Positions 35,477 to 64,000 of a stretch of DNA of 64,000 bases are shown here, one piece after another. The number at the start of each line of letters is the position of its first letter. Position 1 is the stretch's first letter. The position numbers and the translations under genes were made by a program. Below the pieces are notes generated by a model. It was not told where the DNA came from. It saw only the letters and a list, made by a program, of their open reading frames with translations, and made no database searches. The stretch comes from Callorhinchus milii (Eukaryota): positions 3,162,001 through 3,226,000 of the forward strand of contig NW_024704770.1 in NCBI RefSeq assembly GCF_018977255.1, written 5' to 3'.

Positions 35477-38400
35477 ATGGCGGACTTCGCGACAGCGGCG
35501 CCTCCTCCACACGCAGCCGGAGCCGGAGCGCCGGGCCCCGGGCCCGGGGGAGCGGCAGCGGCTTTCAAGAAGCCGGACGCTTTCGCCGACGCGGTGCAGA
35601 GGGCCCGGCAGGTCAGTCGGTGCGGTGGTGCGGGCGGGCGGGCGGGGTGGCCAACGCGAGGCCGAGGCTGCATCCGGAGCTGCTAGGCCGCGTCCGCCTG
35701 TGGGAGCACAAGGGGAGGGGGGAAGGCGAGGGAGGGAGACAATAAAGAGGCGCCTCCAGAGCCCGCCAAGCCGCGGGCCCGCCTCCAGAGGCCGCGAGCC
35801 CCTCTTTATTGTCTCCTCTCTCTCTTTCTCTCTCTCTTTCTTTCTTTCACACGTCAATAAATATTTAACAAATATATATCTGTGTATATAGATATATATG
35901 TGTTATATATTTTGATTATTTCCACCCACCGCCGCTCCCCCCCCCAAAAAAATCCCTTTTGACACACGTTCAGGCCCAGGTGCAGCCATGGAAGAGCTCG
36001 TCACCTTCTCCCTCAATTATATGTCTATATATATATATATAGATTTATTTATTATATATTTTATGTATATATATATATTTAATGTGTATTAATATATATA
36101 TATATTTTTTGGGGGTGGAGGAAGGAGACACCAAATGCTTTTCTTTTGCATTTGAACCCGATGTCAGGAATCCCTCTTGAGGTTAATTCTCGATCTCTTC
36201 TTTTATTCTATCCCTCTTGGTGTGTGTGGATTTTTTTTGTGGGGGGGGGGATCGGCGGCGGCGAAGGGGGGAGTAGAGGGGAAGCTTCTCTTCCACGTTT
36301 AACAGCACCAGTGATACTAATGCTTGCATTTGATTGTAGCGCCTTATCACGTCTTCCTGACGTCTCAAAAGCTCTTCCACAGAAAATATTGTAGTGTGGA
36401 TTGACTGGGTATGTTCTCGGGCGAAAATATTTACCCTCTCACCCACGACCCAGATGCCCAGATAGTAGGTGGGTTCAGTCCGCACAGCCACCCCTCGATC
36501 TTTTCAAGTAAGTCGTTTGACTCCTCCAGTCCTGCTCCACACTGGCATCGCTCTCTATCTACCTACCTCAGGGCAATTCAGGGATTGGCCGGGTAATAAA
36601 AGAACTAATTACTTACAGAAAATAATCTCTTTCTCCCCCAACTCCCCGGTGGGAAATAGATGGATGCACAGGTTGTGGTATTGGGAATATGGGAAGCTGA
36701 AACGCTCCCTGCTGTTGCCCCTCTTCCAAAGAGGAAATGTAAATTAAAATGTCCCTGATTCTCTTTCCCTTCTCCATCCCCATGCCCACGCACACACACC
36801 CCTAAAGTTTTCCATTTACCTGTTCTGATAGGAATAACATCCTAACCCCTGTCTCTCTTGAATCTCTTCCCAGTGTGGCCTCGGTGTCTCTTTTGTTTTG
36901 GGATTTGTTTGTCAGCGACGGTGATGGAGCCTTTCTGGGAGAAACTCTTGTCGCCGCTTTGTATAAAATGGACATTAAAGGATGGTTTGAGTATACACAG
37001 CTAGGCCTGAGTTTTGATAAACAGCGTATCTGTTTTAAAAATAGATTGACCCACGTTGTCCTGGAACCTCCCTTAACAGCTAAGTCTTACACTAGAGACA
37101 ATTACCAAATTAGCCACTGGGAACCCTTAAACATGGCATTGATCGTGGGCTAGATTCTGAGTCAAGCACTTACTCTAGTGTGACAGATCCCACTGTGGGA
37201 GAGTAAGTCTCCCCACTCCACCATGCATTTTCCACATTAATTGTCCTCAGCATTCAATCATTGAGACAGCCAAACTTAGTCATGATTTTGTGCTGGATCA
37301 CGTTCCCTGGAACTTGGTTGAGACCACCTGACCTTGGGTTCCTTAGCCTCTGCAGGGAGGGGAAACTTCTACCCCCTTGTTTTGAGCTAGCTACGAGCTA
37401 TGAGATGTCCAATGGAAAGTGAAAGGTAGGTTTGATGCTGTACGTTATTTTGGGAATGGGGAATGACAATTTTACTAGGCAAGTCTGCCCTGTGTTATTC
37501 AGAAAGCTGGTCGTGTGGAAGTACATTGTCTTCTCACGAGAGCATTGCATTGGGGGTGGAGGGGGAAAGGGGCAAGCAAATATGTCTTACAAGGGGGCAG
37601 TGAATAGGAAAACCAGAGAAAATCAGTGATTTACATTTTATTCCACCTATAATGTACTTCAAACTCCCAAGGTATCACATTGCATACTTCTGAGTCCATT
37701 CCCAGACTATTCTGTTGTACGTTTCCCTATCTGTTTTGAACCCACCATATTCCTCAATCTCCTCTTCCTGTGACAACTCATCCCATTGTCTATTGAACTC
37801 ATTTATGCTATTTGTGACAGTGATTTGTTGCTGGCATTTATTCCATTTGTTTGGTGCTCTTCGAAGCTACCTGTTCAGGGGTGTGAGACGCAATTTCAAG
37901 ACGGACACCAGGAAGAATTTACTTACACAGCGGGTGGTTTACAATTTGATTTGTTCCCTGGAAAGGTGGGCTGGGTTTCCGACACAGCTTGGTGCTGTGA
38001 TGATTGGTGTTTTGATGAGGGTGGAGTCAAATGGTTGCAAAATCTCTCATAATGTGAGGTTTTGCCTGAACTCCCCCATTTACTCATGAGTGTTTAAACT
38101 TGTTTACTGTGTTAATGAGGTGCATTCACTTTGATCAATGTGTTCACAGTTTTGAATACTCCTATGAGGTGTCACAAGGGGTCCTTTCCACTTATGCTCA
38201 ACTTTCTTACCTGTTCCCCCAAGCTCCTAATGTCATCTTAGTTGCCCTATTCTGCACCCTCCTGGAACAAGTCACCCATCTGCTCTAACACTGTCCATGC
38301 ATTCATTTCATGGGTGAACATTCTGAGCTTGCCTGCTTGTCTCCAGTTCAGAACATGTGTCTCCTTTTATATCCTATTTTATTGACTTAGCAGATCGAGT

Positions 38401-53100: not shown

Positions 53101-56100
53101 ATCAAAAAAATACAAAACGACGCAGGCGTGCGGATACAGTTTAAACCAGGTCAGTGGCGAGCGCCGGTGCAGGCAGTGCTGGTGACGACGGTGCGGGCAG
53201 TGCCGGTGGCGCTGGTGCGGGCAGTGCTGCTGGCGCTGTGCCATGGTGCCAGCAAGACCTGGGTGTGGGAAGCTTCTCCGCTAACTTCCTGTCCTGTGTG
53301 AGTGTGTGAGAAAGAGAGTGTGGAGTGGCTGTCTGTGCGTGTGTACGGGCGAGCGCGTGTGTGTGTGAGAGAGTGTGCAGAGTGGCTGTATGTGTGTGAG
53401 AGAGTGCGGAGTGGCTTTGTGTGTGTGCGAGTGTGCGGAGTGGCTGTGTGTGAGTGTGCGCGCCTCTGTCTGTCCATGTGTGTTTGTGAGTCTTGCCTGG
53501 CGGAGTCCGTGTACGTAACTAACCATGTGCTCTCCTCCTGTGTCTCCGCAGATGATGGGACCACGCCGGACAAGATCGCTCACGTAATGGGGCCTCCTGA
53601 GCGATGTCAACACGCCGCTCAAATCATCAGCGATCTCCTGCAGAATGTGCGGGTAGGAAGTCAAGGTCCTCTCTCTCTCCCTCCCACACCCCACCACCCT
53701 CCCACCACCATCCTGCCCTCCTCTCCCTCCGGATTGCTGGCTCCTCACCTCGTCGGGTTGGAGTCCCAGCCTCATGTCGCTGTTGTTGTGTGTGCGCAGG
53801 GCGGCCCGCCCGGACCCCCAGGGCCCGGAATGCCTGGTCCCGGCCGAGGAAGGGGAAGGGGGCAAGGCACATGGGGCATCGGCCCCCCTGGAGGGGAGAT
53901 GGCATTCTCGGTGCCTAGCCACAAGTGTGGGCTCGTCATTGGCAGAGGTGGGTATCGACCCATCGGACGGACGGACTGACTGACTGAATCCCTCCCTCCC
54001 GCCCGCTTTACCTGTGAAGAGTTTTGAGACATCGCAACGACATGCTAAGGGCCCTGTGTCACGTGCGAGGGTTACTGTTTCAAGCTGCCCTGTGTGAGGG
54101 CTGCGATATAAATGCAAGTTATAATAATAATTAATAGTAATAAGAATCCTTGCATGTGATAATAGCGCCTTATCCCATCAGGGGGAACGTCCCAAGACCC
54201 TCAAAAGCGTTTCACGGAATCTACTTAAAAAAAAAGCGAATTGACCTTATGTTTCGTGGGCGAAAGTTACGGCAATTGGGGAACCTTTGAGCTCACAAAC
54301 CAGGCTGTATATTCTGAGTGAGTTATAGTCACACAGGAGACCTCTCACTGCTTCTTTCTCTTCCCCCCCCCCACCACCCATCACCACATCCCTCTGCCCC
54401 TCCCCCCCCCCCCCCCCCAATGTCCCCAAAATGACTGCTGTTTGTGTTCAGACCCAAACTTAAGTAATCGCAGGGTGCTCTCTCGTGCTCGCTCTCGGGT
54501 GCACTCTCTCTCGCGCGCACTCTCTCTCTGAGTTGAGGCAATGACTTTTGTGTGGGGCAGGAGGTGAGAACGTCAAGGCGATAAACCAACAGACGGGAGC
54601 GTTTGTAGAGCTGCAGCGGCAGCCCCCACCCAACGGGGACCCCAACTTCAAGCTCTTCACCATCCGCGGCTCCCCCCAACAAATCGATCACGCCAAGCAG
54701 CTCATCGAGGAGAAGATCGAGGTAAAGGTGGGGGGAGTGGGGTAAAAGGCGGCTCTGTCTGGGGTCACAGGGCAGGCTTGATCACGAGTGAGGCACTGAT
54801 ACCTGGGAGGAGTTTGGTTAGTGAGGGTGGTGGGGGAGAGTTTTGGGAGGGAATCATCTCCAGTGTTGTGTGGCTGCAGATAAACACCAGAGCCCTGTCG
54901 CTCAGTGGTTAGAGCACTTGCCTCGCAAGCGAGAGACCTGGGTTCGATTCCCTTAACTTATTAGCTTAAAAGATTATTATTACAGAACCAGGCAATCTTA
55001 TCCAAGCTTTCCTACCAAGACCATCCTCAGGGAATCGCGTGTGGGCGGGTGTTGGTTGTGCGCTTATTCTAACCCCAACTATTGTCTTGTGGTTGCAGGG
55101 TCCCCTCTGTCCTATTGGCCCCCCGATACCTGGGGGCCCAATGGGACCTTTCCAACCAGGACCGTTTCCCCAAGGACCTCCCGGAGCTCCTCCTCCCCAG
55201 TAAGTAGCTCTGGTTCCGGTGGTGTGGGGGCGGCTGGGTGGGGAGTGTTGGTTGGTTGGTGGGTGGGGGAGAAACGAATGGCGTCTGATGTGCAGTTGGT
55301 GTGATTACTTGGGTTTTTTGCCTGATGCTCTTACTCTATGATGATGATGGTGGTGGTTGGGTGATTGATGGACAGCGAGGTGTCTAACTGATTGTCTCCC
55401 ACAGTCCTGTTGCTGGCGGGCCCCCCCCTCCTCACCAGTACCCCCCCCAGGGCTGGGGCAACACGTACCAGCAGTGGCAGCCACCCGGTGGACCTCACGA
55501 CCCAAGTAACTATTCCAACCTTCTCACCCCATCCCCCCTCTGCTTGCTTGCTTGTTTGTTCACAGGGACATAAGAACAGGAGTAGGCCATTCAGTCCCTC
55601 GAGCCTGTTCCGCCAGTCCTTTTCATTTGGCCTGTGGTGCCTGTGCTTTGCCGGATCTTTGGAAGAGCTGCACAATCAGTCCCGTTCCCCCCTCCCACCC
55701 CCTTTTCTCTTTCCCCATATCCTTGCAAGCTTTTCCTCTTCAAGTACCTGTCCCAATTCCCCGTGTTTTCAGCTTGGGCCGTAATGGTAGTGGTTAGCGA
55801 GAGGAGCCGGGCTGGTTCCCGGGCAGGTCAGGGCCAAACCGAGAGGAGTTTCCTTCTCTCCACACACGCTGTTTTCTCTGGTTACCCGGCAGTCAGTGGG
55901 AACCCGCTTGTGAGTCGATTGGCGGATTAATCCCTCCAAGAAAAATAATAATAATTGGGTCACTCGATCCACGGAAGTGTGGGGGGATGCTGCTGTCCGC
56001 AATTGGCTGCCGCATCAAGTCACTCCACCTTGCGGTGTGTCCCGTGAAGCACTTTGAGGCATCTCAAGCACGTGATGAGACGCCGTGTCAAATGCCAGGA

Positions 56101-57957
56101 TTATTATTATTATTAATTCTGGTTTGTGTGGCTGCAGGTAAAGCTCCTGGAGACCCGAACGCTGCAGCCTGGGCAGCTTATTACCAACAGTATTACCAGC
56201 AACCGGGACCCCCAGTGCCCGCTCCACAGCCAGGCCCCGCACCAGGACCCCCAGGCCCAGGTAAGACCTGTGTGTGCGCGCGCGTGTGCTCTGAGCGTGG
56301 GCATGTGTGGTGTCTGCTGTGTACCTGGGTGTAGGTGGAGTGCGCTGGTCTGGTACATACACACACACATGGTGCTAACCTACGACTTTGTGTCCATCAA
56401 ACAGCGGAGCCTGCACCACAGCCACAGGCGCCCGGACAGCCTGACTATACTAAAGCCTGGGAGGAGTACTACAAGAAGCTAGGTAGGTGCTCAGTAACTT
56501 CGCAAATATGCATACGGTCTTGTTTTGACCCCCACACACCCCGTGTCTGTCTGTCTCTCTCTCGCTCTCTTCCCAAACTCCCCCTCCCCCCAGCACCTCT
56601 CTCAAGTTCCACTCCCTCCCTGTTCCCCCACCCTCACCTCTGTTTACCCCAGCAGTAAGTAGGATTATTAACCCCCGGTTGTTGGCTGTGTGTGTGTGGG
56701 GGCGGGGGGAACGAGTTGTTCGCTGCCTTAATGGCGCCCTTTTTCCTGCTGGGGCAGAGGAGGGAATCCTCGATGCTCCCGGAGGGAGGGGATGGGGGGG
56801 GGAGGAGGGGGTTGCACAGGGTAACGTCTGATATTAGGTATGGGGGGGGGGGTATTTCCACAAAACCTTCCGCCTGTTCTGACGGCTCCTCTCACGCAGG
56901 TCAACAGAACCCCCCTGGCCAGCAACCGGGACCCCAACAGGACTATACGAAAGCATGGGAGGAGTACTACAAGAAGCAAGGTACGCGGGGTTTGTGTTTA
57001 ACCTGGGTCCAAACCCCTGACTGAACAGCGCTTCGGGGCATCTGTCTGACATGAGAGGTGCTTTGCAGGGGGTGGAGGTGGGGGGCGGTGACCGTAAGCG
57101 CCATCGAAAGAGCAAGGTCTTTAGGCTGGACTTGCAGATCAGGAGGGAGGGAGGGGGCGAGGGAGAGTGGTCCGGAGTTTCGGGGAGCAGCGGCTGAAAG
57201 TGTGGCCGGCGGCGGTGGAGAGAGGCGGTGGGGTGGGGGGGGCGGGGGGGGCGAGCTAGCTAGCGCTCTCCGTGTCCAGACTGTACACTGACATGCGCGC
57301 GTGTGTGTGTCTGTGTCTCGCTCTCGCAGCTCAAAGTGCCCAGGGAGCAGCAGCAGCAGTAGCAGCAGCACCACAGCCAGGAGGAGCCCAGCCCGACTAC
57401 AGCGCGGCCTGGGCTGAATACTACAGACAACAGGCAGCTTACTATGGCCAACCCGCAGGGCCACAGCCCACACCACAGCAGCCACCAGTGCAACTAGGGC
57501 AACCGGTACGTCCACCAATTAAGTGGGCTAACTAGTGGCCTCAACCGAGAGTGAGAGAGAGAGAGAGAGAAATCACTAGAGAGAGTCTCTCGTTGATAAA
57601 TATTTGCTTCTAATGGTTTCCTCTTTCGACCTGACCCTTTCTGTCTGTGTGTGTGTCTCTCTCTCTCTCGCTCTCTTCCTCCCCTTCTACCGGCCGCCTG
57701 CTCTCCCTCCCTCCCTTCCTCCCTCCCTCTCTCTCTCACTCCCTTGCACTTCCTCTCCATCTCTCTCTCTCTCTCTCTTCCTCCACCACTCTCCTCCCTT
57801 TCTCGCTCGCTCTCTCCCCCTCCACCCCCACCCCCCCCCTCTCTCACTTCTACCAACACCCTCCCGCTCTCTCCTCCCTTTTTCTCTCTCTCCCCCCTCC
57901 CTTTCGCGCGCTCTCTCTCTCTATCTTTCGTTCTCTCTTTCTCCCCAGACACAGTGA
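35477..57957 (+). CDS. KHSRP: KH-type splicing regulatory protein (far upstream element-binding protein 2)
   Basis: 21 exons: 35477-35611 ([12 protein letters not shown]), 42685-42790, 47494-47532, 48367-48406, 49875-49924, 50541-50612 (IIGRGGEQ), 51296-51353, 51758-51953 (VIGKGGET), 52334-52432, 52693-52815, 53047-53149 (VIGRSGEM), 53552-53652, 53800-53947, 54561-54721, 55099-55199, 55405-55505, 56138-56260, 56405-56482, 56900-56980, 57330-57505, 57949-57957 (TQ, stop). Four KH GxxG loops and four AW(EE/AE/AA)YY tyrosine-rich motifs. Confidence 0.96.
44305..44940 (-). mobile_element. L2-type LINE 3' fragment
   Basis: Minus strand reads like the L2 ORF2 end ([26 protein letters not shown]), followed by the C-rich L2 3' UTR and a (GTT)n-like tail. 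Shorter L2 tails recur at about 9150-9420, 18290-18560, 46220-46500 and 48530-48770. Confidence 0.7.
44945..45550 (-). mobile_element. Two SINE fragments
   Basis: Head/body at 44945-45190 and body/tail at 45345-45550. Confidence 0.7.
51446..51750 (+). mobile_element. tRNA-derived SINE filling most of a KHSRP intron
   Basis: Head, partial body and tail ending just before the acceptor at 51757. Confidence 0.75.
55790..56115 (+). mobile_element. tRNA-derived SINE
   Basis: Family consensus with (TAT)n tail. Confidence 0.7.
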
Positions 57958-58147
57958 AGCAGATGGGGGAGACGAAATGCAGACTCGGGAGAGATATTCC
58001 TTTTAACAATGATGCAGACTGTCTGATGAGAAGATCAATAGGCTTAGATTTCCCTATCACTGTGTGTAAAAAGATGTTCATATTGAGCCAGCCTAGGAGA
58101 TAAGAGTCAAGCTAAGCTCCATCTTCATCCTCGGGTCTGTCTCTTAT

Positions 58148-58469
58148 AATAAAATCAAATTATTAAAAAGTTGAGGGGGAAACAAAACACCTTTTTTGTT
58201 TTTATTTTAAACCTAGATCACTCAGCTTTTTTTTTTTTAGTTTTAAGGATAGTTTCAACATTCCAGTCGACGTACTGTTTGTTTTTTTTTTCCCCCGAAA
58301 TTGAATCCCAATTCATTTTACACTGAAAACGAAACAAAAATGGCTGCTGGTCTGTTTTTTTGGCATCTTGTTTATCTTTATCTGTTTAAAGGTCTTTTTG
58401 GGGGGGAAAGAAAATAAAATGTAAGCTTGGTTTTTACTTTTTACCGCTCGTTTTACACTTCACAATAAA
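58148..58469 (+). terminator. Cluster of candidate KHSRP polyadenylation signals
   Basis: AATAAA at 58148, 58413 and 58464 in a U-rich 3' UTR; a GT-rich tract follows the last one. Confidence 0.55.
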
Positions 58470-59874
58470 TGATATAAAATAACATAACCGTTGTGTCCCT
58501 GTGCGGGGGTGTGTGTGTGCCTGTGTGGGTGTGTGCCTCTCTGTGTGTGTCCCTGTGCGGGTGTGTGCCTGTGTGTGTGCCTGTGCGGCGGTGTGCCTGT
58601 GTGTGTGACCCACCACTCGGGTTCTGATCCGACTGTTCAGCGCCTCGGGACGTCCTCCTGACGTGAAAGGCGCTTTTGCAAATGCAATGCTGTTTAGTTT
58701 GGGTCAAACATTGTAGCTGTGTGTGTTTCTCAACCCCCCCCCCCCCCCCCCACCCCTACCCCTCTCGCCCTACCTCCCAACCATCTCCGATCTGCTTACC
58801 TCCCACCCCACTGACCACTGCTGCCTCCCCTCGCCTGGCTCTGGCCTCCTGCCTGTCAGCTCACACCCTCCTCCTTTCCATCGTCGGCGGCCGCCCTTTC
58901 ACTCCGAATCTCTGGGGCGCTCTCCTATCCCCCCCTCCCACCTCACCCCCTTCCTTCCCCATCTAAGGGTAATGACTACAGCAGCCGGAGTGTCAAAAAG
59001 GCTGGAGCCAACAACAACAACTTGCATTTGCACAGCGCCCTTCATGTGGAGTAGCGTCCCAGAGCTCTCGACAGTGACCCCGAGCTGAGGGGGGAGGAGG
59101 AGGGGGCGCTGTCCGTGAGCACAGTCAGAAACAAAGGGCTTTGGCGGGGATTTGAAAGGGGTGGGGGGGGGAGTGGAGGGATTGAGGGAGAGAGTTTTGG
59201 AGGCGACAAGAAAGGGAATAAAGGAGCGAGTCTGTTGTCCGTCCACTTTAATAGTCAGAAGGACAAGGAGGACACGGATTACAGTGTGACTGAGCCCCAG
59301 AGCGGTGTGTGGGGCTGTGTGTGTGTGTGTGTGGGGGGGGGGGGGGGTGGTGTTGGGTGGGTAGGGCTGTGTGTGTGTGTATGTGGGGGGTGGGGGGGGG
59401 GGAGGAGATGGATCACCATCTCCGGCTCCGCAAACTGCCGCCAAAGGCAAAAAGGTCGTCACTCCCTGTTAGTCACTCTTTCAACCAGACACGGAGCAGA
59501 CACGACAGTCGTACTAACGGCCTCTTTACAGACAGGTTGTCAGAGAGAGCGAGAGCCGCGGTGAGAGTTTGGCCGTGTTTATCCGCATGGCGTTCCAAAG
59601 TATATCCCTCTGTAAGTGGAGCCGTCTTCGCCTCGTGTGCTGTTTCCCCCCCAACCCACACACACACACTCTCTCCCTCTCACACACACACACACCACAC
59701 TCCCTCACACACCCACTCCCCACACACACATACCCACTCTCCCTCACACACACGTGCACGTTCCTCCTAACACACACACACACCCACTCCTCCCCCCACA
59801 CAGACACACGCATACATTCTCTCTCCCACCCCCACCACCATATACACGCACACGCACACAAATGTCCGCTCCCC

Positions 59875-60414
59875 TCACAGGACTTTGATCATCGCGGCCA
59901 CACTGTTATAGACGCTATCCTCTGTGTCTTCCCCCATCACCTGAGGGGGTGGGGAGAGAGAGAGAAGCAGAGGGTCAGAGGCAGGTGTTGACTCGTGTTG
60001 TACCATCACCCCTGGGGTCCCAACGCACTCATCCCGTTTAAAGCTGCCTCAGATGCTTGTGGGTTGGAGCCCCACATGGGGTGCGGGGGAGGGAGGGGGC
60101 GAGAGAGGGAGGGTCGGGTGGGGGGAGACTTTGAACTCGCAGACCAGGCTGACACTCGGGTGGATCGAGCTCCCCCCTCCCCCCCACCCCCGCCGCCTTC
60201 CTCCCCACTAACCCTCGCTTACCCTCTTCAAGAGACCTTTATTGTCATAATAATCCACCACCCACTTGGCATTTGCCAAGTAATTCCGCACTCGCTTGTT
60301 GATGATGGTCTTGTGGTCGTCAAAGCGCCCGGGGCCCTCTCCCCTCTTGTGCAGTCGGCTCTTCATGGTCTCCGGGGAGCATTCCATCAGGATCACCATC
60401 TCCGGCTCCGCAAA
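59875..60414 (-). CDS. Adenylate kinase, AK1/AK5-type short-LID family, last two coding exons only
   Basis: Exon 60414-60223 (192 nt; FAEPEMVILMECSPETMKSRLHKRGEGPGRFDDHKTIINKRVRNY..YYDNKGLLKR) and exon 59940-59875 (VMGEDTEDSVYNSVAAMIKVL, stop), with canonical splice sites. Resembles AK1 ETMTQRLLKRGETSGRVDD..KKRLETY and has the same exon breaks. Upstream exons (P-loop) not visible. Confidence 0.82.
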
Positions 60415-60554
60415 CTGCCGCCAAAGGCAAAAAGGTCGTCACCCCCCGTTAGTCACACAATCCGCTGCCTTGGGACGTCCTCCTGACCGGACAGGCGCTA
60501 GACAAATATAATTTGTTGTTGTCGTTGTTGCCCGGGATTAACGACCTCCCATGT

Positions 60555-60920
60555 TAATAATAATAATCCTCCCATTTGACCCCCATCATCACGTCGTCGA
60601 GACGTCTCAAAGCGCTTCACGGAATGCACTTCAAAGTGTAGTGACTGTGTATTTCGTGGGCGAAACGCGGCAACCAAACAGTTGCGGATTGAAGTGACCA
60701 CATTATTATTATTTTTTGTTGGTGGGGAAGGGATTATTATTAACCCCAGAAAAGCGATCCGCCAATCGACTAACCAGTGAGTTCCTACTTACTGCCAAGT
60801 AAACAGAGGCGTGTGTGTGGAGTCAGGAAACTCGGCTAAGGTTTTGCCCCGACCCTGGGAATCAAACCCAGGTCCTCTGTCTTGCGAAGCGAGTGCTCTC
60901 ACCACTGAACTATAGGACTC
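60555..60920 (-). mobile_element. tRNA-derived SINE, near full length
   Basis: Family consensus. Confidence 0.8.
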
Positions 60921-60999
60921 TCCATTGAGTGTGGTTGTAAATATCTCCCTCTCGAGTGGAGGCGGTGGGAAGGGGGGTCCTGGAGGCAGGTAAGTACCT

Positions 61000-61024
61000 N
61001 NNNNNNNNNNNNNNNNNNNNNNNN
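61000..61024. other. Assembly gap (25 N)
   Basis: N run between the adenylate kinase-like and IL27RA-like exons. Confidence 0.99.
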
Positions 61025-61395
61025 ATTCTCTCTCACTGTCTCGTCACTCTCTCTCTCTCTCTCCCTCTCATTTTCATTCATTCTCCGTCCCTCTCACTCA
61101 CTCTCTCGCCACCTCTCCCATTCTCTCTCTCTCTCTCTCTCACTCCCCCCCCACTCTTTCTCTCCTATCTCCCTACCTCTCTCTCTCTTTCCCTCTCCCT
61201 GTCACTCTCTCTCCCCCTCTCTATCCTCTCTCACTCACCCTTCCACGTCTCCCACACCTCCCTCTCACTCTCTCCTCCCTATCTTCTCCAGCTGTCTCTC
61301 TATCACTCTCACTCACTCTCTTTCTCCATGTCCGACTCTCTCTCACGCTCTCCCTCTCTCCCCCGCCTGCCCCCTCAACCCCCTTCCCCCCTCAG

Positions 61396-61650
61396 ACACG
61401 ACTGGCTGTGGCTGTGGCCGTTGATGTCCTGCAGACTCCGGGGTTGGAGCTGGAGCCAGTGATCGCTGAGGTGGAGGAGACGGAGCTGGAGGAGATCACG
61501 ACCCCACTGACCCCTGACCCCAGCCCCGAGGGTCTGTACTGGTCAAAGCCCCCGAGCGAGAGCACGGCTCAGCCCGTTATCACGTCAACAGTCACCTACG
61601 GTTACGAGAAGCACTTCCTGCCGAACCCAGAGGATCTAATATACGACTGA
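61396..61650 (+). CDS. IL27RA: Terminal coding exon of an IL-27 receptor alpha (WSX-1)-like class I cytokine receptor
   Basis: A long pyrimidine tract and CAG acceptor precede ..EPVIAEVEETELEE..TYGYEKHFLPNPEDLIYD, stop. This matches the recalled human IL27RA tail (box2-like LPILEVEEME; SGYEKHFLPTPEEL). Only one exon is visible. Confidence 0.72.
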   Translation, partial: TRLAVAVAVDVLQTPGLELEPVIAEVEETELEEITTPLTPDPSPEGLYWSKPPSESTAQPVITSTVTYGYEKHFLPNPEDLIYD

Positions 61651-61669
61651 GCTGTTAAAAGCGTTAATG

Positions 61670-62020
61670 GATCCAGTAGCTCAGCGGGTAGACCCCTCGC
61701 CTCGCAAGCGAAGAGTCCTGGGTTGGATTCCCGGGCGGTTCAGGTCAGGATGAAACATTGGGCAACTTTCCTCACTCCACACACACTCCCCGCGCCTCTG
61801 TTGAGCAGCAGCAAGTAGGAAACCGGTCGTTAGTCGAGTGGCTTTTCCTGGGATAATAATCCCATCAAAAATAATAATAATAATCATAATTCGGTCACTT
61901 CAACCCACGGCTGTTTGTGGGGCCGCCGCTGGGCGCCATTGGCTGCCGCGGTTTCGCCCACAAAATTCACAGTCGATTCACTTGACAGCGAGTCCCGTGA
62001 AGCGCTTTGAGACGTCTCTC
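61670..62020 (+). mobile_element. tRNA-derived SINE just after the IL27RA-like stop codon
   Basis: Family consensus. Confidence 0.78.
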
Positions 62021-62912
62021 CATTCACGTCGTCCTGACTGTCAGGTCAGGGGCTCAAGGGACACGGGGCAAACAGCAGGTCGTTGGAGTTGAAGTACGGA
62101 TCAGCCATAGAATGATGCAACAGGCTGGAGGGGCTGAATGGCCTCTGTTCCTATAAACGAGCGCATTTATCCAGAGGGACTGTCGGCCAGGACACTGGCA
62201 GGAAAGAGAGAGAGAGAGAGGATCGCAGGATCTGTAACGTCCACCTTGAACAGGGCACAGGCGGGAGGGGGAGAGGTGGGGGGGAGGTGGGGTGGGGGGT
62301 GGGGAGAGGTTTAACAGCGCCTCCTGCGAAGCAGCTCCCTGTGCCTCAGCCCCCACCCCCCCCACCCCACCCCCACAGCACAGAACTGACTTGGCATCAG
62401 CCCAGCTGAGGGGCTTGGACCCACCACCCCCTGCTCTCAGTGTGTGAGGTGCTTGGGGAGGGATGGGGAGGACACTGAAAGCACAGCCATAGGAAGGATT
62501 AATAACAATAAGTCTCGCACAAGCGCAGATCTCACACAATCATCTCACCCCGAGCGGAAACCAGCGAGACAGCGAGAGCAGCAACCTGCAGATAAGTTTT
62601 ATTTTTGTGAAAGACTGGTGGAACATTAAACGGCTCGAAAGCCCCCTTTCCTGTTTACCCCGGTCTCTGCGGCTCAGTCTGATGCAGATAAGAAAGCTTA
62701 ACCCCTCGCTGGCCCCGGCCCTGGCTGCCACAGCCTGTGTTAACCCCGACCGGGTTCTCGGCCTCGCGCCCACGTTTTTAACGTCCCGCCGTCTGTCGGC
62801 GCTGAGAGCAGCCTCGGCAGCTCAGCTCACCGTCCCCTCGGGGCTGGGCATCAGCAACCTCCAGGGGACACGCGTGGCCTTGGTGTGTTCTGCGTTGACA
62901 TGTTCAGTGTCA

Positions 62913-63142
62913 TGTCGGCGTGTCCAGGTGTTGGCGTGACGTATGTCCCAGGTGTTGGTGTGACGTGTGTCCCAGGTGTCGGCGCGACGTGTGTCCCAGG
63001 TGTCGGCGTGACGTGTGTCCCAGGTGTTGGCGTGACGTGTGTCCCGGGTGTTGGCGTGACATGTGTCCCGGGTGTCGGCGTGACGTGTGTCCCAGGTGTT
63101 GATGTGACGTGTATCTCAGGTGTCGACGTGTCAGGTGTCGGC
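62913..63142. repeat. 24-bp minisatellite TGTGTCCCAGGTGTCGGCGTGACG
   Basis: About 8 near-perfect units directly after the P2RY11 stop. Confidence 0.92.
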
Positions 63143-63147
63143 GCGGC

Positions 63148-64000
63148 TCACACATGGACCTCTGTGGCCCCGGTGTACGCCGGTGTGTCCTGCTGGCCCC
63201 GGCCCGGGCAGCACAGGGCCTTGGCATGCTCGGGCAGGGCCGCGTACAGCAGGGGGTGGAGGCAGGCATTGAGGGTGACCAGACCCTTGCTGACCTGGTA
63301 GGCCTTGTAGATGCCCCCGGCCGCCTGGTCCAGGCCGTGGAGCCTCCGGTACAGGTTGACATTCCTCAGCACCGTATAGGGCAGGAAGGAGACGCCATAC
63401 AGCGAGAGGACCACGAGCACCAGCGCCAGGACCCGGTGGCGCTCGGCCCGCTCCACGCTGGGGCTGGCCCAGACCGCCCGCACCACCGACAGGTAGCAGC
63501 TCAAGGTCACCAAGAAGGGCAGGGCGCAGCTCCACACGGCCAGAAACAGGCTGTAGTGCAGGTAGCCGGCCAGGCGGGCGTCCACGGCGGTGCCCAGGCA
63601 CTGCAGCTTGCCGTGCCGCTCCTCCAGCTGGGAGTAGGAGAGGGTGGGCCCGGTGATGGCCGCGGTCAGCAGCCAGCCCGCCAGGCTGGCCAGCTTGGCC
63701 CGGCCGGGCCGCACGTGGGCCCGGGCCAGCATGGGCCGCACGATGCCCAGGTAGCGGTTCAGGCTGATGAAGGTGATGAAGAGGATGCTGCCGTACAGGT
63801 TGCAGGTGAAGAGGAAGCGCTCGGCCCGGCAGAGGCTCTGGCCAAACCGCCAGGACTTGCCGCTGGCGTAGTAGGCGATTAGCAGGGGCAGCGAGGCGGC
63901 GTACAGCAGGTCGCTCAGGGCCAGGCTGAAGGCCAGCACCGTGCCCGAGTGCCAGGGCCGGGCCACCCGGCACACGAACAGCCAGACGGCCAGACTGTTG
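63148..64000 (-). CDS. P2RY11: P2Y purinoceptor 11 (class A GPCR), 5' end beyond the right edge
   Basis: Uninterrupted ORF with RPWH, LALSDLLY, ERFLFTCNL, ISLNRYLGIV (NRY in place of DRY), CLGTA, YQV and HPLLY, all characteristic of P2Y11. Confidence 0.9.
   Translation of the reverse strand, partial: NSLAVWLFVCRVARPWHSGTVLAFSLALSDLLYAASLPLLIAYYASGKSWRFGQSLCRAERFLFTCNLYGSILFITFISLNRYLGIVRPMLARAHVRPGRAKLASLAGWLLTAAITGPTLSYSQLEERHGKLQCLGTAVDARLAGYLHYSLFLAVWSCALPFLVTLSCYLSVVRAVWASPSVERAERHRVLALVLVVLSLYGVSFLPYTVLRNVNLYRRLHGLDQAAGGIYKAYQVSKGLVTLNACLHPLLYAALPEHAKALCCPGRGQQDTPAYTGATEVHV

Follow-up and report, generated by a model that had tools for sequence, protein, structure and literature searches.

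An adenylate kinase gene lies beside KHSRP in the elephant shark, Callorhinchus milii. We asked whether it is a form of AK1, a form of AK5, or a third member of their family. Coordinates without a contig name refer to the window, by which we mean the whole stretch of 64,000 nucleotides that was analyzed, part of contig C29. The reading that we prefer, with a probability of roughly 0.7, is that the gene is a sister copy of AK5 from the second vertebrate genome duplication, reduced to its last kinase domain and predicted to encode an active NMP kinase. The argument draws on the following features.

54557-58469, plus strand: 3' part of KHSRP (KH4 exon, FUBP_C exons and 3' end), with KH and FUBP_C matches and AATAAA at 58464
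59247-59874, minus strand: likely 3' UTR of the kinase gene, probably ending near ATTAAA at 59247-59252
59405-59476, minus strand: 72-nt local copy of the acceptor region 60385-60456 (66/72 identical), inside the likely 3' UTR
59875-59940, minus strand: coding part of the last exon, 66 nt, 21 codons plus TGA, cag/GTG...TGA
59941-60222, minus strand: GT-AG intron, 282 nt, skipped in contigs of probable RNA runs X1, X2 and X3
60223-60414, minus strand: penultimate coding exon, 192 nt, 64 codons, phase 0/0, cag/TTT...AGG/gtaag, overlapped by probable RNA contigs
Within 60223-60414, minus strand: LID region with R128, R132, R138, D140, D141 and R149 (AK1 numbering)
61000-61024, no strand: run of 25 N, likely concealing 5' exons of the kinase gene and those of an opposite-strand neighbor

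KHSRP, a name that we presume from its domains and sequence, is on the plus strand and the kinase gene on the minus strand, so the two are arranged tail-to-tail, as an earlier note on this DNA had claimed. That note's description of two intact spliced exons encoding a short-LID adenylate kinase C terminus, with the pattern RLHKR..GRFDD..KR, was also borne out: the exons translate without a break into 85 amino acids and a stop, and the pattern is present. The 64-amino-acid exon scores 28.9 bits against the Pfam ADK family (PF00406; cut-off, 26.8 bits), and in the PDB it matches AK1 of pig and human best (E about 6e-10). The gene has the same exon borders, phases and 192-nt exon length as C. milii's own AK1 and AK5 second domain, a match that is not expected by chance, and the stop codon falls at the end of AK1 and AK5 domain 2, one codon shorter. 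Identity as a first domain was ruled out by the lack of a 3-residue insertion, by the terminal stop and by a profile score of 113 versus 146 to 154 bits.

The intron is spliced out in contigs of three runs, belonging to two studies, that are probably RNA; runs X1, X2 and X3 were taken as RNA by guess, none being recorded as such, and the contigs of DNA run X8 do not cover the exons and hence give no unspliced control. ATTAAA at 59247-59252 is the sole minus-strand signal from 58480 to the stop codon, and contigs of run X1 lie over the likely 3' UTR at 59414-59560, 59577-59643 and 59762-59938. Loose contig ends in runs X1, X3 and X8 match the flank of the 72-nt copy.

Databases hold C. milii proteins named 'adenylate kinase isoenzyme 1-like' (XP_007884703.1 and A0A4W3H7X4, two of three protein-search candidates). 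This is a real third AK1/AK5 paralog, spliced and automatically annotated as AK1-like, that has apparently gone unrecognized as a separate gene. An Atlas search with it returned generic ADK clusters only, and a literature search, with most subscription journals outside its scope, returned no paper on it. AK1, AK5 and KHSRP were absent from the one supplement searched of an ohnolog database (PMC13450315), whose ohnolog tables may affect the novelty of the gene. Any surprise is modest, since ohnologs that mammals have lost are well documented as a class.

The 5' part of the gene was looked for in several ways. Queries with the Pfam family and related proteins matched no 5' exon in the C. milii assembly, C29 included, and a motif scan of the window and the next 120 kb found neither a P-loop nor a DG[FY]P motif. 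C. milii database proteins include two more upstream exons, from GYTHLS to AFDKF, and contig ends past 60414 read LKQAEAFDKF in all three probable RNA runs. These contigs extend beyond 60414 by 282, 291 and 282 nt, compared with 281 nt for the AK1 exons (117 + 164); because the lengths fit, the P-loop exon, known by its length and not by its letters, is likely whole. The contigs end at the 5' border of that exon, and the sequence of one C. milii database entry begins downstream of it. On the opposite strand, the last exon of the neighbor (plus strand, 61393) is preceded by about 1.9 kb of contig sequence that is absent from 58400-64000, so the N run at 61000 likely hides a real gap.

The neighbor's exon itself (61393-61743) ends in ...LPNPEDLIYD, is carried on contigs of 2.3-2.5 kb, and has no Pfam match and no Atlas result. 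Several A>G differences, which may be alleles, occur in probable RNA contigs over 62155-63376.

A recent duplicate of the chimaera lineage, or a decaying remnant without 5' exons, would account for the absence of those exons from the assembly, and the 34% identity to the shark's own AK1 over 85 amino acids can be read in its favor. The upstream exons exist, however, and are spliced in frame; the earlier note had raised the chance that they were absent or disabled, and both database proteins and probable RNA contigs contain them. Over the 255 nt of the last two exons, amino-acid identity is 34% to the shark's own AK1 and 31% to AK5 domain 2, while pS is 0.68 and 0.91, respectively, so that synonymous sites are near saturation. 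Outside the exons, among the matches listed, only repeats align with the AK1 and AK5 loci. Near-saturated pS and kept introns together indicate that the copy is old and is not a retrocopy. Of the 34 family-invariant columns in the covered region, the gene retains 25, a rate well over the background of 38 of 127 other columns (p 2e-7). A recent or decaying copy is therefore largely refuted, and we give it very little credence.

Gene order on C29 is TYK2, CDC37, SLC25A23, KHSRP, the kinase gene, the 25-N run, the plus-strand last exon, a P2Y-type receptor gene, PPAN and PDE4A. Names follow Pfam domains where matched and are presumed from sequence otherwise, as for CDC37 and PPAN. The receptor is a single-exon gene at 63148-64000 on the minus strand (7tm_1, E 4e-42), with PPAN-like and PDE4A-like genes beyond. 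Between SLC25A23 and KHSRP, an open frame on the minus strand (37678-37857) ends in ...WEWTQKYAM; it has no Pfam match at E 0.01, and we take it to resemble the end of a UBE2D-type protein.

True AK1 of C. milii is on C8 (20.51 Mb), the two-domain AK5 is on C5 (15.26-15.28 Mb), and CMPK1 is also on C5 (1.29 Mb). The KH4 exon of KHSRP has three genome matches, namely itself on C29, C5 at 15.43 Mb (75%) and C8 at 20.36 Mb (67%), and the distance from the AK1/AK5-type gene to the KH paralog is about 6 kb on C29, 143 kb on C5 (AK5) and 148 kb on C8 (AK1). AK5 and its KH neighbor are convergent, like the kinase gene and KHSRP; Myb, Miga and I-set genes separate the pair on C5, and no gene separates the pair on C29. 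We take the C5 order to be PIGK, AK5, ZZZ3, USP33, MIGA1, NEXN and FUBP1, as on human 1p31; the evidence consists of Myb, Miga, I-set and KH matches and peptides. We know of no AK1/AK5-type gene on human 19p13.

The wider neighborhood points in the same direction. SLC25A23-type matches are on C29, C5 and C8, and the top JAK and PDE4 matches are on C29, C5, C1 and C21. Only C29 and C5 have both the KH/SLC25A23-type and the JAK/PDE4 sets, as would be expected if a fused chromosome had been doubled at 2R. According to a passage in PMC8302630, 2R in the elephant shark typically left a pair made up of a large chromosome and a microchromosome; C5 measures 69.3 Mb and C29 measures 4.27 Mb. A contrary sign is that the SLC25A23 exon is nearer to its C8 paralog (59%) than to its C5 paralog (49%). 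With KH, SLC25A2x, JAK and PDE4 paralogs spread over C29, C5, C8, C1 and C21, the locus shows the paralogy expected of a 2R ohnolog.

Such a setting has to be weighed against an old small-scale duplication, in which a copy of AK1 or AK5 domain 2 moved beside KHSRP and the related amphibian proteins described below arose by a separate duplication and converged. All three AK1/AK5-type genes on large contigs lie less than 150 kb from a KH paralog, whereas three 300-kb windows make up only about 0.1% of the 992-Mb genome (gene density ignored). The orientation also equals that of AK5 and FUBP1, and the kept introns speak against a retrocopy.

Other AK-type sequences in the assembly were noted. An AK1-like gene on contig C1636 was set aside as a fourth copy, being likely foreign DNA. 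That contig (C1636:1-9346, 9.3 kb) has a CpG o/e of 0.78, one frame-broken exon and the last exon on the opposite strand; it has no repeats in common with the other C. milii DNA compared, giving one match to it (the AK1 exon), versus 293 to 920 for six control stretches. At C14:3369897-3370097 there is a near copy of the AK5 first-domain P-loop exon and its flanks, which looks like a recent partial duplicate.

Relatives of the gene are found among amphibians. A newt protein is the first BLAST match after the shark's own (among the best 150 of 6657 representatives). When the newt protein was used as the query, at least seven rows, representing five species of salamanders and caecilians, belonged to the group (among the best 120 of 1803), with Pleurodeles as a sixth species. 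The three best non-self BLAST matches are caecilian proteins (149, 141 and 140 bits; the next scores 139). These salamander and caecilian proteins, named 'adenylate kinase isoenzyme 1-like' (XP_078541655.1, XP_069508988.1, XP_030052750.1, XP_029440614.1, XP_033779301.1 and KAJ1160930.1), have RFDD, ECS.ETM, DGFPR, QA and a hydrophobic residue 39 in common with the shark protein. Each has a single domain and a length within 211-242 aa, and most start MGNCN. In Microcaecilia, AK1-like is on a 535-Mb record and AK1 on a 346-Mb record. The gene probably also survives in salamanders and caecilians. An orthology search in sharks, rays, ray-finned fishes and frogs, which was of low sensitivity, found none, and a candidate protein from Polypterus was ruled out as an ortholog, as it groups with AK5 domain 2.

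In three trees (58, 31 and 29 rows), the shark protein was joined to the amphibian AK1-like proteins (94/88, 94/88 and 87/86), and that group to AK5 domain 2 (94/88, 92/83 and 86/82; UFboot 86-94). The 31-row tree was built without 27 of the 58 rows (all first-domain, CMPK1 and long invertebrate rows and some near-duplicates), and the 29-row tree additionally without two fast teleost AK5 rows. Lamprey groups with AK1, and the shark protein lies outside the AK1 clade in the three best trees. The shark branch is long (1.25-1.45), no fork holding the query is starred, and fast copies could be drawn together by long branches. None of the seven finished AU tests rejects an alternative (p 0.086-0.416): p is 0.143 for the query with its own AK1, 0.096 with its own AK5 domain 2, 0.416 as sister to AK1, 0.283 with AK1 alone, 0.403 with AK5 alone, and 0.095 and 0.086 for the amphibian copies with amphibian AK1. 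The earlier note had considered nesting within AK1 or AK5; the shark protein is nested in neither in any best tree, although none of the seven tests rejects such placements.

Profile scores are tied (AK5 domain 2, 154 bits; amphibian AK1-like, 149 bits; AK1, 146 bits), and the shark protein is 34-42% identical to the amphibian group and 37-40% identical to AK1. Of the residues that it shares with a single group, seven are those of amphibian AK1-like, five those of AK1 and one that of AK5. The small-scale duplicate draws its case from the AU tests, which a grouping with AK1 or AK5 survives, from these tied scores, and from the presence of F95 and A102 in AK5 domain 1 and of F95 in CMPK1, which makes convergence possible. 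Set against the placement and orientation of the gene, we find such an origin improbable. The earlier note's proposal of a duplication sister copy is supported by the synteny within the genome, the near-saturated pS and the three moderately supported trees, but the AU tests exclude none of the alternatives. The case for an ohnolog is mostly one of synteny, with the tree suggestive; we hold it likely that the KHSRP-side gene is a 2R ohnolog, and a position as sister to AK5 more likely than one as sister to AK1.

A copy from genome duplication could also be only the 3' half of a two-domain AK5-like gene, with its front in the gap and an ortholog in teleost ak5l. Contigs that reach no further upstream than the P-loop exon, an N run whose length may differ from that of the true gap, and the position as sister to AK5 in three trees all suit this arrangement. 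Yet C29, including the 120 kb after the window, yielded no N-terminal or first-domain exon, and the amphibian relatives are single-domain. Nor was the earlier note's link to fish ak5-like genes supported: among 401 gathered proteins, no frog, amniote, ray-finned fish, teleost or elasmobranch member of the group was found, in a search insensitive enough to have missed the shark-caecilian link itself. A two-domain gene orthologous to ak5l seems to us about as doubtful as the small-scale duplicate, if not slightly more so.

The AK1 locus may explain the fish names. In two predicted gene models, AK1 isoform X1 of Xenopus tropicalis (627 aa) and a protein of Lampetra (560 aa), an AK5-like front and a first ADK domain precede a last domain of AK1 type, and the first domains of these long forms cluster together, apart from those of AK5 (99/92). 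The X. laevis annotation treats the front half of this locus as a gene of its own; in the shark, the 50 kb upstream of AK1 showed no AK5-like front half. The front half seen at the AK1 locus in frog and lamprey would be a likelier origin of 'ak5-like' names than the KHSRP-side gene; a literature search for the name ak5l returned nothing relevant. MG-x-x-C starts occur in many fish and amphibian AK1 forms, and the MGNCN of amphibian AK1-like is similar. Passages in the literature describe a human AK5 transcript limited to the second domain (PMC11626602), a myristoylated AK1beta form of AK1 (PMC2680645) and the AK set of medaka, mouse and human (PMC8726475). We infer that the ancestral gene was a single long one that had an internal start.

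For a sister copy of AK5, the following history can be proposed. The ancestor would have had an N-terminal segment and two kinase domains, a layout still seen in AK5 and in the long AK1 forms of frog and lamprey, and stood beside a FUBP gene. A first duplication would have produced the AK1/FUBP3 line and the AK5/FUBP1 line, and a second would have placed AK5/FUBP1 on a large chromosome (C5) and the kinase gene with KHSRP on the small, GC-rich C29, where intervening genes would then have been lost. If this is true, the gene represents a third vertebrate lineage in the AK1/AK5 family, and a single two-domain ancestor was split among copies after genome duplication: AK1 would be the last domain nearly unchanged, AK5 the long form with a drifting last domain, and the new copy one with the arginines and an altered pocket. 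The 'AK1-like' labels in chimaera and amphibian annotations would likely mask a separate gene.

Residues bear on what the protein might do. R132, R138, D140, D141 and R149 of the LID are all encoded in 60223-60414, and the NMP-site residues R44, G64, G94-x-P-R97 and Q101 are present in C. milii database proteins, and contigs bear out the junction with that exon. Every covered catalytic arginine is kept, and the AMP pocket is altered (T39I, Y95F and G102A). Positions 39, 95 and 102 read I, F and A in the shark copy, T, Y and G in AK1, and V, F and A in AK5 domain 1, so the T39 and Y95 of AK1 proper are replaced by I39 and F95. T39 has a role in adenine binding, and AK5 domain 1 accepts a broad range of NMPs. 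On the strength of these residues, we think it rather probable that the gene encodes an active NMP kinase with a looser base preference. Using the AK1 mechanism, the enzyme would make ADP + NDP from ATP + NMP, and I39, F95 and A102 would form a looser NMP pocket.

A bolder extension is speculative, and we consider it unlikely as a whole: AK1 and AK5 would be pieces of a single ancestral two-domain gene that had an internal promoter, and the third ohnolog, beside KHSRP in chimaeras, salamanders and caecilians, would be a myristoylated, membrane-bound single domain with a remodeled pocket, serving as a CMP-accepting kinase in the shark and as a nucleotide-binding pseudo-kinase with a GKD/GRN P-loop in amphibians.

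Compared with known enzymes, the shark copy resembles CMPK1 in its DGFPRN motif and non-threonine residue 39; CMPK1 differs in having N at the Q101 position and differently placed exons, and its gene lies apart, at 1.29 Mb on C5. The amphibian AK1-like proteins have P-loops that read GKD, GKN or GRN instead of GKG, with K21R in two of five, and their activity may be lowered; the model of a caecilian relative has the AK1 fold (pLDDT 80.6, TM 0.85 to 1z83). With AK1 (PDB 1z83, 3adk), the shark copy has in common the short LID, the last two introns and R44, R97, Q101, R128, R132, R138, D140, D141 and R149. It departs from AK1 at T39I, Y95F, G102A, V139F and G177D, and it lies on a different contig from true AK1 on C8. 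The AK5 second domain (AK5p2, PDB 2bwj) is its sister in the trees, has the same intron positions and is likewise convergent with a FUBP-family gene, whereas the N-terminal segment and first domain of AK5 were not found for the shark copy on C29, where a gap lies upstream. With G22R, R132Q, R138C and R149H, the second domain of shark AK5 (C5:15280791-15284085) may have lost catalysis; strong divergence is also seen in the second domains of teleost AK5. The shark copy has R132, R138 and R149, where shark AK5 domain 2 has Q, C and H, and the retention of these three arginines suggests a division of labor between the two genes.
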